Assembly (NCBI GenBank): GCA_963768655.1
Contig: CAVYIM010000005.1
Coordinates: 320,001-384,000 of the forward strand
Direction of reading: 5' to 3'
From: an uncultured Chloroflexia bacterium
GTDB taxonomy: Bacteria; Chloroflexota; Limnocylindria; Limnocylindrales; CSP1-4
DNA: 64,000 bases
Below the pieces are notes generated by a model. The model saw only the letters and a list, made by a program, of their open reading frames with translations, did not search any database and was not told where the DNA came from. This document shows, one piece after another, positions 44,534-48,662 of this stretch (the stretch's first letter is position 1; each line of letters begins with the position of its first letter). The position numbers and the translations under genes were made by a program.

Positions 44534-45333
44534 CGCAAGCCGACGGAGCAGTCGTCGATCTGCGCGGCGTCTCGGTCATTCGATCGGGGACGCTGCTGCT
44601 CGACGGCGTCGACTGGCGGATCGGGCCCGGTGAGCGCTGGGTCCTGCTCGGCCCCAACGGTAGCGGCAAGACGACCCTCATGGCCGTAGCCTCCACCTAC
44701 CTGTGGCCCTCCCGTGGCGAAGTGGCGGTTCTGGGTCGGGCCGTCGGCACGGTCGACATACGCGAGTTGCGCAGAAGCATCGGCATCGTCAGCGCCGCCC
44801 TGGAGGCCCGCATCCCGGGCCAGATCAGTGCCCTGGAGGTCGTCCTGGCCGGCGCCACCGGAGCCATCGCGCCGTGGTGGGAGCGCCACGGAGCGCGCGT
44901 CCGAGGCAAGGCCCGCGAGATGCTGGAGCTGGTCGAATGTTCGGCCCTGAGCGAGCGGCGCTTCGAGCTGCTGTCCTCCGGCGAGAAGCAGCGCATCCAG
45001 ATCGCCCGCGCGCTGATGCCCGATCCCTCACTCCTGCTCCTCGACGAGCCGGCTGCCGGGCTCGATCTGGGCGCTCGCGAACAGCTCGCCCTGTTGCTGT
45101 CAGCGCTGAACGAGGATCCACGTCTGGCGGCGATCGTCGTGGTCACGCACCACGTCGAGGAGATCGCGCCCGGGACGACTCACGCGCTGGTCCTGCGAGG
45201 CGGGAGGGTCGTCGCCTCCGGCGCTGCCGGCGACACCGTGACCGGCCCCGTGCTGTCGGACGCGTTCGGCTTGCCGCTGGTCCTGCACCGGGTCGGCCAG
45301 CGGTTCACAGCGAGAGCCGCCTCGGCCTCCTAG
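44530..45333 (+). CDS. ABC transporter ATP-binding protein (ModF/YlmA-like)
   Basis: GPNGSGKT, LSSGE, LLLDEP, VTHHVEEI. Confidence 0.92.
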   Translation: MTQADGAVVDLRGVSVIRSGTLLLDGVDWRIGPGERWVLLGPNGSGKTTLMAVASTYLWPSRGEVAVLGRAVGTVDIRELRRSIGIVSAALEARIPGQISALEVVLAGATGAIAPWWERHGARVRGKAREMLELVECSALSERRFELLSSGEKQRIQIARALMPDPSLLLLDEPAAGLDLGAREQLALLLSALNEDPRLAAIVVVTHHVEEIAPGTTHALVLRGGRVVASGAAGDTVTGPVLSDAFGLPLVLHRVGQRFTARAASAS

Positions 45334-45405
45334 GGCGCGCAGCCGGCGAGCTCGCGGCGAAGCAACAGCCCCGCCGGACCGCGGCCCGCGACCGCCACGA
45401 CCGGC

Positions 45406-46059
45406 CTATGGCCGCAGCCAGTCGATGCTGGGCCACTCCTCCTCCGGGATGGCTTCGGGGGCGACCGAGATGCGGGGCTCGTGCGCCGACGACGCAAGAG
45501 GCGCGTCGGGCGCGGCGGGCATTACGGCAGAGGCGGCGGCCACACCCTGAGTCCGGGCCCGCACCGACGCGGCGAGACGGAGCCGGCGCCGCCTCGGGGA
45601 GCCTCCGATCGCGCGGACGGCCTTGTGGACGGCCGCCTCGCGGGCGATGGCGCGAGTCTGTCGCGACGCCCCGGTCCCGCGCCCCGGGACGTCGATCGGT
45701 CCGGGCGCCACCTCGATGGCGACCCGGCCATGGCCTCTCTGCAACGGCATCGCGACCGTCTCGACCGGCCCGTTTTCGGGCGCCCCCTCTGTCGTCGAGG
45801 CGGTCGACGGCGCCGCGTCGCGAGCTCCGGGGATCGTCATGACCCGCAGGGAATCGAGGCGGCTGACGAGTTTGAGCGCCTCCTCGACCTCGCCGGCTCG
45901 GACGTCTCCCTCTGCCACCGCCTGATTCATGCGGAGCCGCCGTTCCTCCGGATCAAGATCGATCAGATCATCCAGGACCTTCTGGCGCCGCGCCTCGCGC
46001 GCAGCCCGATTCCAAAACACTTGTTTGCTCCTGCCGCTGGCGTTGGGACGAACGGCCAA
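45406..46059 (-). CDS. Hypothetical protein (helical N-terminus, disordered C-terminus)
   Basis: Plausible codon usage in the N-terminal half; start uncertain. Confidence 0.5.
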   Translation of the reverse strand: MAVRPNASGRSKQVFWNRAAREARRQKVLDDLIDLDPEERRLRMNQAVAEGDVRAGEVEEALKLVSRLDSLRVMTIPGARDAAPSTASTTEGAPENGPVETVAMPLQRGHGRVAIEVAPGPIDVPGRGTGASRQTRAIAREAAVHKAVRAIGGSPRRRRLRLAASVRARTQGVAAASAVMPAAPDAPLASSAHEPRISVAPEAIPEEEWPSIDWLRP

Positions 46060-46417
46060 CCGAGAAGGGGAACCGACCTCTGGCAGTCACCAGCGGCGGT
46101 CGAGAATGGAGCGGCTGGATCTACCCGACCAGCCTCCCACGAGGCTGCCACACCGCCCCCCGCCGGACAACGGCTCCGCCCGATTGACGCACCAGCCGGC
46201 ACAAACGGAAAAGTTCTCCGAGTCGCTGGATCAGGCTCAACCAGAGGGAGGCGGCCGGCGGCACCGCCGCTGGCGGCGCCGTCGTCGGACCGCTGACCGT
46301 GCCAGAGATGCTGGCATGCGGGTCCGCCGGCAGCCGCCCCGGCTCGAGCTATCCAGCGGGCACGGGCGGAAAGATACGAGGCGATGGAACGCGTGTTAGC
46401 AAATCTAGAGCATTGCG

Positions 46418-46540
46418 TCAGCGGGGGATGATCGTCGGTCCTCCATCCGCCAGAACGGTCGCTACCGGAAGCAATGCCAGAGCGACTGCCAGGATCCAGG
46501 CCAGAACGAGAGCGCGAAGGCTGAACAAGCGGAGCGACAT
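46418..46540 (-). CDS. Secreted signalling propeptide, 40 aa (MSLRLFSLRALVLAWILAVALALLPVATVLA-DGGPTIIPR)
   Basis: Strong RBS GAAAGGAG; basic n-region, hydrophobic h-region, VLA cleavage site, 9-aa polar tail; absent from the ORF track. Confidence 0.8.
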   Translation of the reverse strand: MSLRLFSLRALVLAWILAVALALLPVATVLADGGPTIIPR

Positions 46541-46610
46541 TGGGCGACTCCTTTCGGGAGGTTGGTCGCCCGCCTGGAACCCGGCCGGCGCGGCTCCGTC
46601 GGCGCCCCGA

Positions 46611-46640
46611 ATCGTACGGAAGGTCCGCCTGCGCGGTCAA
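46611..46640 (-). promoter_or_regulatory. Putative sigma70 promoter of the propeptide gene
   Basis: TTGACC-N18-TACGAT on the minus strand. Confidence 0.55.
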
Positions 46641-46679
46641 GTGCTACTGAACCTGTAGGCATCCAGGCACCGGCGCCTG

Positions 46680-46708
46680 TTCAAACTGCCTCACAAAGGT
46701 CGTAAACT
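46680..46708 (+). promoter_or_regulatory. Putative promoter of the HTH-TPR regulator (leaderless mRNA)
   Basis: TTCAAA-N17-TAAACT, 6 nt before ATG 46715; no SD sequence. Confidence 0.45.
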
Positions 46709-46714
46709 GTGTCC

Positions 46715-48010
46715 ATGCCTAGAGTCAGCGCCACCCGTCCCAGAGTCGACGATTCCCCACTGGCCAGGAAGATCGGCGAGCGGCTGCGGAAGGCGCGGCT
46801 CGCCGCCGGATTGACCCAGACCCAGCTGGCCGAGCCTCGCTATACCAAAGCCTACGTAAGCGCCCTCGAGAATGGCCTGAGCCGTCCGTCGATGGCGGCC
46901 CTGAACCACTTCGCCGGACGACTGGGGATACCGGCCAGTCAGCTCATCAACGACGAGCCGGCGGCGTGGGCCCGGCTGGAAGCCGACCTCCTCCTGGCCT
47001 GCAGCCGCTGGGATGAGGCGATAGCGGCGTATTCAAACCTTCTGGAGGCCCCCCAGCCCTCGGGCGCGCGGGCAGAGCTTCTGCGCGCTCTGAGCGAGGC
47101 CATGATCCGCAAGGGCCAGGCCGGAGATGCCATCGCGCGCGCGACTGAGTCCGCGGAGTTGTTCCGGGGCGCCCGTCGCGATGCCGACGCCGCCATGGCC
47201 GAGTACTGGGTTGCCGCGGCGCACTACATGCTGGAGAACACGACCGAGGCGAAAGCGATCCTGAACGCGATCCTGGCTCGAGTGAGAAGTGGCCTCAGGG
47301 TCGAGCCGGATTTTCAGGCCCGCATCCTGATGTCACTCTCATCCAACGAGTCGCTCGACGGCAACCACAAGGCGGCTCTGGCATATCTGGAGGAGGTTCG
47401 CGGCCTGGACGCCGATCTGGACGACCGCCGTCGCGCCGCCTACATGTTCGATCTGGCCTACAGCTACCGGGAGACCGGCGACTTCGAAGCAGCGGTTCGG
47501 ACGGGGATCATCAGCCTGGAGCTCTACCGGCGGGCGGAGGCCGAGCGCGAAACCGGGGCGCTCGAGAACGACCTGTCGATGTCGTACCTGGCTCTCGGCA
47601 ACTCAACCAGGGCAGCCGAGATGGCGGCGTCGGCTCGGGCGCGGTTCGAGCGGCTGGACGACAAGTGGTGGCTGGCCTTCGTACTCGACAGTCAGGCCCG
47701 GATCGCACTTGCGCGGGGCTCCGCCGACGAGGCCGCCCAATACGCCGGGCAGGCTCTGGAGCTTGCGCGATTCAACAAGAACGCGAAGGCCTCCGTCGAT
47801 GCCCTCCTGACCCTCGCCCGAGCCCGCACCGCGCTGGGCGACGGGGCGGGCTGTCTCGCCGCCAACGAGCAAGCCGCCGAGCTGGCCCGGCTGGCGGGCA
47901 GTCCGTCACTCGTCCGCAAGTCGCTGCGCGATCTGGCCGACGCGCTGGCGGCTTCCGGCGATCACGAACGCGCCTTTGCCCTGATGCGCGAGGCGCTGAC
48001 GGCGTCCTGA
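46715..48010 (+). CDS. XRE-HTH + TPR transcriptional regulator (RRNPP-like peptide receptor)
   Basis: IGERLRKARLAAGLTQTQLA...YVSALENG..RPS HTH followed by ~350 aa of TPR-like helical repeats. Confidence 0.85.
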   Translation: MPRVSATRPRVDDSPLARKIGERLRKARLAAGLTQTQLAEPRYTKAYVSALENGLSRPSMAALNHFAGRLGIPASQLINDEPAAWARLEADLLLACSRWDEAIAAYSNLLEAPQPSGARAELLRALSEAMIRKGQAGDAIARATESAELFRGARRDADAAMAEYWVAAAHYMLENTTEAKAILNAILARVRSGLRVEPDFQARILMSLSSNESLDGNHKAALAYLEEVRGLDADLDDRRRAAYMFDLAYSYRETGDFEAAVRTGIISLELYRRAEAERETGALENDLSMSYLALGNSTRAAEMAASARARFERLDDKWWLAFVLDSQARIALARGSADEAAQYAGQALELARFNKNAKASVDALLTLARARTALGDGAGCLAANEQAAELARLAGSPSLVRKSLRDLADALAASGDHERAFALMREALTAS

Positions 48011-48192
48011 GCTAGGTCGCGGACGGCCGCATCCCGGGGCACCAGGTCGGTGCCGGTCGTCACCACTTCCTCCAGGCGGAGTTGCCCGGCCGCGCTCGGC
48101 CGCGAGCTAGTGGCGCTCTGTGGCGTGTGATCGGCGTGAGAACCGCGCGAGGCGTGGTACACTCCCATTGGACTCGCACTCGACGGGGGACC

Positions 48193-48486
48193 ATGACTGT
48201 TCCGACCCAGACCATCGCCATCCGCGCCGTTCGCAAACTGGCGCCGGTTCCCTGGTGCCATGACGGCTGTAGTGGTCTCGCAATTCGAGCGCGGGCCGAT
48301 GTGCCGTCTTTCGATGATTCGATGATCCGAGGTGGCATCATCCGCGGCGCCGTCTCGTGCGAGCGGCTCACCGTCCTCGATCGGGCCATCAATCGTGAAC
48401 TCTGGCCGCTCGGCTACGTCGCCCATCTCGAACGCGGCGTCGCCGACGGTGGCGTGGTCGTGGTGGAGATCGCGGCCGGACGCTGA
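48193..48486 (+). CDS. Small hypothetical protein
   Basis: RBS GGGGGA; extended -10-like TGGTACACT upstream. Confidence 0.55.
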   Translation: MTVPTQTIAIRAVRKLAPVPWCHDGCSGLAIRARADVPSFDDSMIRGGIIRGAVSCERLTVLDRAINRELWPLGYVAHLERGVADGGVVVVEIAAGR

Positions 48487-48662
48487 CACGGCATCGGGCC
48501 GACGCATCCTTGGGGGGAACGCCTCGGCCCGATGTCCCGATTGCTGCCTGTCGGCGTCTCCACTCGGCGATCGCAAGCCGGGCACGCACAGATAGTCGCG
48601 CAAATCCCCCACTCCCGGTTTCTTCCCTGGCACGAACGTCGCCGATGCGGCACGCTGACGCA

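Follow-up and report, generated by a model that had tools for sequence, protein, structure and literature searches.

A small gene conserved beside a helix-turn-helix regulator in Limnocylindria: a candidate RRNPP-type peptide/receptor module outside Bacillota

Genes and signals at the locus

We analyzed a 64,000-nucleotide stretch of the genome of an uncultured Chloroflexota bacterium (contig CAVYIM010000005.1, positions 320,001 to 384,000; hereafter the window) that contains a pair of divergent genes, proposed in a first-pass annotation of the bare sequence to encode a secreted peptide pheromone and its receptor. The first of these is a small open reading frame (ORF) on the minus strand (46418..46540), recovered from the ORF listing with an ATG start, 40 codons and a stop. 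The second (46715..48010, plus strand) encodes a 431-amino-acid (aa) regulator, the candidate receptor, which according to Pfam and an AlphaFold2 model combines an XRE-type helix-turn-helix (HTH) with tetratricopeptide repeats (TPR). Its ATG at 46715 lies 174 nucleotides (nt) from the start of the small ORF, and an alternative GTG start at 46709 would give a product of 433 aa. Both genes and their spacing agree with the first-pass description. Each is single-copy in the genome (3.37 Mb, 9 contigs, 88.6% complete), and near-identical proteins are named 'Candidatus Limnocylindrales bacterium' at NCBI, in line with the Chloroflexota host guessed from the sequence.

The product of the small ORF has the layout of a Sec-type propeptide. 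Residues 1–31 (46448..46540, minus strand) resemble a signal peptide by their sequence features, with a basic N-end, a hydrophobic core of ~20 residues and a small-x-Ala motif, here V-L-A, before the predicted cut. The nine residues that follow (residues 32–40; 46421..46447, minus strand) form a Gly-rich tail ending hydrophobic/aromatic-Pro-Arg, which sequence comparison marks as the candidate mature peptide. The translation and transcription signals that had been claimed for this gene were found as well. The ribosome-binding site (RBS) GAAAGGAG (46548..46555, minus strand) stands 7 nt before the ATG and has an AAGGAG-like core at the same distance in aligned loci. The promoter-like TTGACC-18-TACGAT (46640..46611, minus strand), both hexamers of which fall in conserved columns of a 26-locus alignment, was recovered by a consensus scan as the sole match of its kind in 45300..48600, where 0.1 would be expected from shuffled sequences. 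A hairpin in the leader of the small ORF (46541–46605, minus strand; −31.8 kcal/mol) covers the RBS; it was rejected as a candidate element, with z = −0.92 against shuffles.

Conservation of the small ORF

In a search of 60 relatives, the receptor was found in 27 of the 36 genomes of the same genus, at 52–92% identity. All 28 receptor-bearing genomes of the genus, that of the window included, contain a small ORF of 39–41 codons, which is intact and divergent in 27 and has a frameshifted 5' part in the remaining one (L019). Its ATG lies 157–174 nt from the receptor start, or ~338 nt in three distant members, and each start has an AAGGAG-like site ahead of it. Nucleotide diversity at the first, second and third codon positions was 0.358/0.276/0.537, the third being the most variable, and among the eight closest species pN/pS was lower in the signal part (0.22) than in the tail (0.68). 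The end of the ORF is fixed in the same-genus alignment, with TGA, TAA and TAG all occurring as stop codons. Three residues are each preserved in ≥90% of 46 aligned peptides, namely the N-region Arg, the Ala predicted to stand at −1 and a Pro close to the C-end; the tail differs between species, yet the Pro and its neighbouring residues are retained.

Conservation and a coding signature, on which the first-pass proposal depended, are thus both present, and the alignments indicate that the small ORF is a real, conserved gene, of which the tail is the selected part. Seven protein clusters among 5.8 billion match the peptide, so that gene finders had already called it; two of these are named 'hypothetical protein', one bears an implausible oxidase-subunit label and four come without a source name.

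A few sequences depart from this pattern. Gene decay or faulty assembly may account for L005, L019 and L030/L031: an in-frame TAG interrupts the receptor of G004, that of G027 is split over three frames beside an intact small ORF, and the small ORF of G015 is frameshifted. In L051, L053, L067, L069 and L116 (one clade of the family denoted f4 and one further locus), a Cys directly follows the predicted cut and small residues precede it; from this likeness to a lipoprotein box, the peptides might carry a lipid anchor instead of being free.

Distribution of the cassette

The same search of 60 relatives found the receptor in none of the 24 genomes of a sister family with ~1.1-Mb genomes. Sampling the whole class Limnocylindria, we detected a receptor homologue (E ≤1e-15) in 235 of 301 genomes, a tally that takes in 12 unpublished genomes on which no other claim rests. 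By family, homologues occurred in 45/91 genomes of the window's own family, 0/12 of the small-genome family, 97/103 of f4 (at ~47% identity) and 90/92 of f3 (weak matches). Among 8000 scored candidates there were 1966 receptor homologues. In a phylum-wide profile search, strong matches were confined to Limnocylindria, and weak ones (E 1e-21 to 1e-41) turned up in a small number of further families, chiefly f19 (6/8).

We then applied fixed criteria to the flanks of the receptor genes. A qualifying ORF had 24–46 aa, a basic residue among the first ten, a 12-residue window with a mean hydropathy of ≥1.7 followed by a tail of 4–20 residues, and an ending of hydrophobic/aromatic-Pro plus 0–4 residues; a separate second pattern served for signal-less mini-ORFs. 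From the 143 loci collected, the counts and the tree described below leave out L057–L061, L070 and L031, which repeat other loci, L002 and L003, and two loci from unpublished genomes (L050 and L054, from G148 and G139); the tree also leaves out receptors outside 400–480 aa and loci without a peptide call.

Under these criteria 108 of 124 receptor loci, from two families, were positive (29/33 of the same genus, 21/30 of other genera and 58/61 of f4), compared with 16 of 4000 random 700-nt single-strand windows of the same genome (0.4%), in which the mini-ORF pattern occurred 0 times. The first-pass annotation had predicted small signal-peptide ORFs with varying tails in the flanks of homologous receptors, and this expectation was borne out. 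The f4 positives comprise 37 divergent propeptide ORFs, 18 divergent mini-ORFs and 3 convergent downstream ORFs. Among the loci that missed the criteria, L026, L035, L036, L041, L107, L112 and L122 have a small signal-peptide ORF with an off-pattern ending, and L039, L043 and L062 have <500 nt of upstream sequence; none of the scans found a small ORF of this type at L046, L098, L104 (other genera), L103 and L085 (f3). In L084 (f3) and L089 (f24), the receptor gene is preceded on its own strand by an uncounted signal-peptide ORF of 32–41 aa whose tail is of another type and contains Cys; these may be further variants of the cassette.

The f19 homologues come from records titled 'Candidatus Dormiibacterota bacterium' or 'Chloroflexi bacterium'. 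All seven loci with such titles (7/7) have a divergent ORF of 25–30 codons ~120 nt from the receptor, in which a hydrophobic leader is followed by a tail of 6–8 residues ending hydrophobic/aromatic-Pro-x-basic, and the fixed criteria picked out 4 of 5 f19 loci. By sequence comparison, the cassette is conserved across the class and reappears in a second deep lineage. One Dormibacteria-type cassette (L145) lies on a contig titled as an ammonia-oxidising archaeon, which is most likely mis-binned.

An origin in mobile elements was considered and rejected. No receptor match was found in 50,697 phage records, and the matches in 72,556 plasmid records covered the HTH only (17–25% of the query). The protein matched on a Streptomyces plasmid belongs to another family, and no small ORF is annotated next to it. 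The cassette is vertically inherited across the class, with no sign of a mobile element.

The cassette as a unit

Several observations bear on whether the two genes belong together. Four same-genus genomes that lack the receptor (90–92% complete) all lack the small ORF too (4/4): their best matches to it had E ≥0.003 and were generic hydrophobic stretches, compared with E 4e-19 in a control genome. Many f4 genomes have two receptor paralogues, the second of which form a clade of their own. A separate small ORF, its tail closing with Trp-Pro-stop, accompanies six of nine second paralogues, and in three the small ORF lies ~100–300 nt downstream of the receptor in convergent orientation, so that adjacency outlives the loss of a shared promoter region. 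In a tree of 104 receptors, the tails follow the receptor clades. The ORF type changes twice on this tree and the orientation once, and any single tail feature changes independently too rarely to be compared with 432 receptor columns.

No signal-peptide ORF was present at 18 f4 loci from five genera. At 17 of them, a 12-codon ORF lies 160–196 nt from the receptor behind a GGAG-type site, and at the eighteenth (L133) the same ORF is lengthened to 22 codons. The predicted product consists of Met, a few variable residues, a Gly-rich stretch, an aromatic residue, Pro and one more residue, and is the counterpart of the cut site and tail in sister-genus propeptides. These mini-ORFs are alike in their core and dissimilar in their flanks; Ser is encoded from both codon families at one position, and the position of the stop is fixed (17/17). 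Because five f4 genera have retained the tail alone, as a 12-codon ORF, we take the tail to be the functional part of the gene. The mini-ORFs fall in one clade of 19 rows, within which the propeptide-type locus L080 is nested, which implies at least two changes between the ORF types.

Architecture and fold of the receptor

The 431-aa protein, described in the first-pass annotation as an XRE-HTH + TPR regulator, consists of an HTH domain at about residues 14–80 (46754..46954, plus strand) and a TPR superhelix at residues 81–431 (46955..48007, plus strand). Pfam matches are HTH_31 (E 4.3e-9, residues 20–74), HTH_3 (E 5.6e-6) and TPR_12 (E 2.7e-19, four stretches), and neither a signal peptide nor a membrane segment was seen in the sequence. 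An AlphaFold2 model built on 44 homologues has a mean pLDDT of 91.2 and 23 helices, comprising a five-helix HTH domain followed by 18 helices over residues 82–429, that is, nine helix pairs. The recognition helix of the HTH is nearly invariant among the receptors (column identity 0.97), and mean pairwise identity is 0.55 in the TPR part versus 0.69 in the HTH. In TPR proteins the first helix of each repeat lines the groove; here the first helix is better conserved than the second in seven of the nine repeats.

A resemblance to the fold of known RRNPP receptors, which had been anticipated, was found in structural comparisons, in which generic TPR proteins match slightly better. In a Foldseek search of the PDB the first places went to eukaryotic TPR domains of LGN/Pins; PlcR came at ranks 23 and 36, and Rap proteins followed at 43–49. 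In VIA-align, LGN/Pins reached Z 28–30 over 308–345 aligned residues. The best bacterial structural match was apo NprR (5dbk; Z 27.6, 345 aligned residues, model residues 77–431), with the NprR–NprX complex (4gpk) at Z 24.3, Rap proteins at 24.8–26.7 (a Rap–peptide complex 26.7, phage Rap proteins ~26) and MalT domain III at 22.6. A profile search of PDB sequences returned kinesin light chain (4.8e-11), the PlcR HTH (2.6e-9), RapH (1.7e-7), the ComR HTH (6.7e-5) and NprR (3e-4). Going by the model, the architecture and size of the receptor are those of NprR, and RRNPP receptors are its best bacterial matches; since eukaryotic LGN/Pins domains are the top matches overall, the modelled fold is that of a generic peptide-binding TPR solenoid and is not diagnostic of RRNPP. 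A complex prediction run on alignments of the full receptor and the full 40-aa propeptide gave a score of 0.02, which weighs neither for nor against binding.

The nearest named clusters in the ESM Atlas are HTH+TPR proteins of Chloroflexota, 'Candidatus Dormiibacterota' and Actinomycetota. HTH+TPR clusters of similar length are common in Actinomycetota, one of them having 830 members.

Regulatory DNA and neighbouring genes

An alignment of the intergenic region of 26 loci revealed conserved blocks at the small-ORF RBS, at its −10 and −35 hexamers, over an 18-nt stretch containing the −35, and at a GTA.ACT motif. The 18-nt box (46635..46652, plus strand) is the most conserved of these and is a candidate operator of the HTH protein; it likely serves as such and would then create an auto-regulatory loop. 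The 8-nt core of the box was found upstream of the small ORF in 29/29 same-genus loci, 11/21 loci of other genera and 5/57 f4 loci. On the receptor side, a promoter-like TTCAAA-17-TAAACT (46680..46708, plus strand) was read by eye and was not reported by the consensus scan. No Shine-Dalgarno sequence precedes the receptor ATG, and the GTA.ACT block 6–8 nt before it is conserved in the 26-locus alignment. Because the −10 ends 6 nt before the ATG and a conserved block occupies this site, the receptor mRNA is probably leaderless.

Downstream of the small ORF on the same strand, a 217-aa ORF (45406..46059, minus strand) lies outside the conserved cassette and is a candidate for a co-transcribed, species-specific output of the system. 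We found no terminator-like site between the two, nor elsewhere in the 3.3 kb scanned. Homologues of this ORF occur at only 13 distinct same-genus loci, on the same strand and 245–424 nt after the small ORF. Conservation is limited to the first ~77 residues, beyond which the sequence evolves fast and is probably disordered; no Pfam family matched, and in L004 the homologue is shortened to 129 aa. At 26 f4 loci the next gene, which we take from its look to be LigD-like, is encoded on the receptor strand and converges on the small ORF. There is no conserved co-directional gene downstream of the small ORF.

Two further observations concern the surroundings of the receptor. In L025, a stand-alone 104-aa XRE HTH ORF (L025:1834–2148, minus strand; HTH_31 E 4.3e-11) occupies the gap separating the small ORF from the receptor, in the receptor's orientation, and so places the small ORF ~338 nt away; similar spacing is seen in L026, L027, L038, L041, L044 and others of one clade. 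Between the receptor and a DUF72 gene in the window (~48190–48530), a minus-strand frame used as query revealed protein-level conservation in 23 loci, and a 97-aa plus-strand ORF without a Pfam match (48193–48486) covers the same conserved stretch.

Export and uptake functions in the genome

A pheromone that is exported and re-imported needs machinery for both, and the search for opp/dpp suggested at first reading found Opp/Dpp-type importers to be encoded in the genome. Six family-5 solute-binding proteins (SBP_bac_5) and eight ATPases with an oligopeptide-type C-terminal domain (oligo_HPY) were matched; such parts are common in bacteria, and a control search was positive in 11 of 14 genomes. 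Signal peptidase I is also encoded. Omp85 and LpxC were not found, which, with the caveat that the genome is 88.6% complete, fits a single-membrane envelope. The peptidase, the importers and the envelope markers are none of them specific to the locus.

Comparison with known systems

In the portions of the literature available to us, RRNPP(A) receptors are described as systems of Bacillota and of their conjugative elements and phages (PMC10075063, PMC12700828, PMC10518010), and the survey of PMC10075063 is presented there as one of complete Firmicutes genomes only. The word stems 'Chloroflex' and 'Actinobacteria' do not occur in PMC9765709, and searches for literature on RRNPP systems in Chloroflexi and on quorum sensing in Limnocylindria or Dormibacter returned nothing relevant. 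The statement of the first-pass annotation that no characterized example is known from Chloroflexota therefore agrees with the literature searched, with the proviso that the supplementary tables of PMC10075063, PMC9765709 and PMC10518010 may list non-Bacillota matches. According to the available text of PMC10518010, RRNPP signals are generally the C-terminal part of a Sec-type propeptide, and the RopB-SIP/LCP systems of Firmicutes use an ultra-small ORF with a strong RBS beside the receptor, without leader or processing site. The 12-codon ORFs of five f4 genera fit this second description, which has been given for Firmicutes only; leaderless forms are found at the 18 f4 loci, whereas the small ORF of the window has a leader. 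Leaderless forms nested inside a clade of Sec-type propeptides mean that both kinds occur in one receptor lineage.

The closest likeness is to NprR–NprX, in a receptor of ~420–430 aa whose XRE-type HTH stands at the N-terminus, ahead of a TPR superhelix with some nine repeats, and in a partner that is a Sec-type propeptide of ~40 aa, predicted here from the sequence; the NprX propeptide is likewise of Sec type and roughly 40 aa. The present receptor differs in belonging to Chloroflexota rather than Bacillota, in its profile match to NprR of only E 3e-4 and in an identity of 9–12% in structural alignment. Moreover, nprX lies downstream of nprR on the same strand, whereas the peptide gene here is divergent and upstream, with a tail that is Gly-rich and then aromatic-Pro-basic, a motif other than that of NprX. 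In Rgg-SHP and PrgX-PrgQ systems the peptide gene is divergent, or in some cases convergent, and an operator on the peptide promoter gives auto-induction; divergent and convergent arrangements are both seen among our loci. Rgg receptors are smaller and their peptides have no classical Sec signal, and no Rgg-type family was among the Pfam and NCBIfam matches of the receptor.

All RRNPP subfamilies except Rap have an N-terminal HTH. PlcR shares with the present locus an HTH + TPR architecture and a Sec-type propeptide, with a profile match of E 2.6e-9 over the HTH, and differs in its length of ~290 aa and fewer repeats. Rap-Phr also has a Sec-type propeptide, and the whole TPR domain of Rap aligns (Z 24.8–26.7), but Rap has no HTH; structural alignments with PlcR and Rap have 7–18% identity. 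LGN/Pins proteins are likewise TPR superhelices that hold extended peptides in their inner groove, to judge from the titles of the structure entries, but are eukaryotic and have no HTH. The cassette therefore shares with RRNPP systems a TPR-type receptor, an N-terminal HTH and an adjacent small gene with a predicted export signal, and departs from them in the lack of a curated subfamily match and in its occurrence outside Bacillota and mobile elements. Since architecture, adjacent propeptide and fold agree while sequence family and taxonomic range do not, we file it as RRNPP-like and not as a proven member.

Interpretation

We consider it reasonably probable, at about 0.6, that the locus is a two-gene RRNPP-type peptide/receptor module outside Bacillota. 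The small ORF would be transcribed from its own sigma-70-type promoter and translated into the 40-aa propeptide, which Sec would export and signal peptidase I would cut after small-x-Ala. Cleavage would release a Gly-rich peptide of ~9 residues with a hydrophobic/aromatic-Pro-Arg end, possibly subject to further trimming. Once concentrated enough, the peptide would be returned to the cytoplasm by an Opp/Dpp-type ABC importer and would bind there to the divergently encoded HTH-TPR protein, in the groove of its TPR superhelix. Binding would alter the occupancy by this protein of the conserved box over the small-ORF −35, completing an auto-regulatory loop, and in this species the loop may read through into the downstream 217-aa ORF.

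The comparative evidence partly supports, and in that measure strengthens, an interpretation as peptide signalling. Of the receptor-pheromone pair originally put forward, the conserved adjacent genes, the likeness of fold and the presence of machinery genes stand; the 'secreted propeptide' does not hold family-wide, given the signal-less 12-codon versions. Both genes exist, are conserved and stay adjacent, and the receptor has an HTH and a TPR superhelix of the size of that of NprR.

A number of points weigh against this interpretation. Every functional step is deduced from sequence and models. This applies to export of the propeptide and the place where it is cut, to re-import of the peptide and its binding to the TPR domain, to the operator and the direction in which it regulates, and to any dependence on density. 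A small ORF that is no more than a target of the regulator would be just as likely to lie beside it and be inherited with it. The 12-codon forms have no signal and cannot use Sec, so they would require another exporter or else imply intracellular signalling, which would not be quorum sensing. The receptor matched only generic HTH and TPR models in Pfam (E ≤0.01), with no curated RRNPP family, and nothing above the cut-off in NCBIfam (E ≤0.1), where no RRNPP subfamily appeared. Its structural likeness is not specific to RRNPP, as LGN/Pins (Z ~30) outscores NprR and even MalT domain III reaches 22.6. The 18-nt box, allowing ≤1 mismatch, occurs in the whole 3.37-Mb genome at this locus only, so that no regulon beyond the peptide gene is visible. 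The tail motif was taken from the earliest loci examined before being used on the others, which the background rate calibrates and does not remove, and many loci come from related genomes and are not independent; the counts consequently show consistency and not independent events. Finally, a search of sequencing runs found no RNA run with the stretch, and one DNA run, from a freshwater sediment metagenome, with 0.09 of its words.

The alternative that survives best, though we regard it as unlikely, is that the small ORF is only the regulator's target. The secreted peptide would then act elsewhere, on a membrane sensor or on other cells or in a surface-active or antimicrobial role, and the TPR domain would sense something else. 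Adjacency, co-duplication and co-loss suit a regulator and its target as well as a receptor and its ligand, the conserved box sits on the small-ORF promoter, and TPR domains bind many partners, the top structural matches here not being bacterial pheromone receptors. The export-less 12-codon forms, however, retain the tail beside the receptor, which is hard to square with a purely extracellular role reached through Sec. The pair also stays adjacent in the convergent arrangement, where no promoter region is shared, and the flanks hold no second conserved partner gene.

Far less probable is a regulatory leader, in which the small ORF would encode a ribosome-arrest peptide (a secretion monitor, or stalling at Pro-stop) that controls a downstream gene. 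A conserved aromatic-Pro at or near the stop, Pro-Pro runs in the tails of some clades and the lack, in the window, of a terminator-like site before the 217-aa ORF are compatible with such a role. Arrest leaders, however, share a transcript with the gene they control, and at the 26 loci of the sister family f4 where the next gene converges on the small ORF there is nothing downstream to control; in the genus itself a downstream ORF accompanies only 13 loci. The distance from the Pro to the stop varies across loci from 0 to 5 residues, and at 40 codons the signal peptide would be barely clear of the ribosome before termination. We judge similarly improbable an uncleaved single-pass membrane micro-protein that would tether or titrate the regulator through its short cytoplasmic N-end. 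The ~20-residue hydrophobic stretch and the basic N-end residues are conserved, but the 12-codon lineages have lost the hydrophobic segment and retained the tail, which would be extracellular in that arrangement, and the small-x-Ala site before the tail is nearly invariant.

Scarcely credible is a chance ORF whose conservation reflects the receptor's promoter or operator DNA: spurious ORFs abound in high-G+C genomes (82 ORFs of ≥25 aa in 6.5 kb), and signal-peptide-like ORFs without the tail motif occurred in 159 of the 4000 random windows, but the codon-position pattern and pN/pS, a constant length despite changing stop codons, an RBS at constant distance, the occurrence of the small ORF at other positions and orientations relative to the receptor, and seven gene-finder protein clusters, none with a credible functional name, all speak against it.

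Significance

Cytoplasmic peptide receptors with encoded pheromones have so far been treated, in those parts of the literature available to us, as a trait of Bacillota and their plasmids and phages. A peptide/receptor module at this locus would widen the range of peptide quorum sensing to another phylum and bring what is a textbook trait of Bacillota into uncultured Chloroflexota. A broader proposition, on which we see the odds as even, is that vertically inherited HTH-TPR receptors, each with an adjacent pheromone gene, run through Limnocylindria and Dormibacteria-type Chloroflexota, and that RRNPP-style signalling is not restricted to Bacillota. If so, the peptides would share a C-terminal hydrophobic/aromatic-Pro-(x)-basic code, duplications of the cassette would have given rise to separate peptide types within one genome, and one receptor clade would have switched at least twice between Sec-exported propeptides and leaderless 12-residue peptides. 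Such a distribution would mean either that the signalling design is ancient in monoderm bacteria or that it was invented independently.

The series from Sec-type propeptide to leaderless 12-mer and paralogous types would then be a natural one in which to follow the evolution of export signals and specificity. Such a module would also flag a class of genes of 12–40 codons that annotation has overlooked or left without a credible function. For the abundant Chloroflexota of soil and freshwater that have not yet been grown, a peptide/receptor module of this kind would provide a testable handle on their social behaviour.

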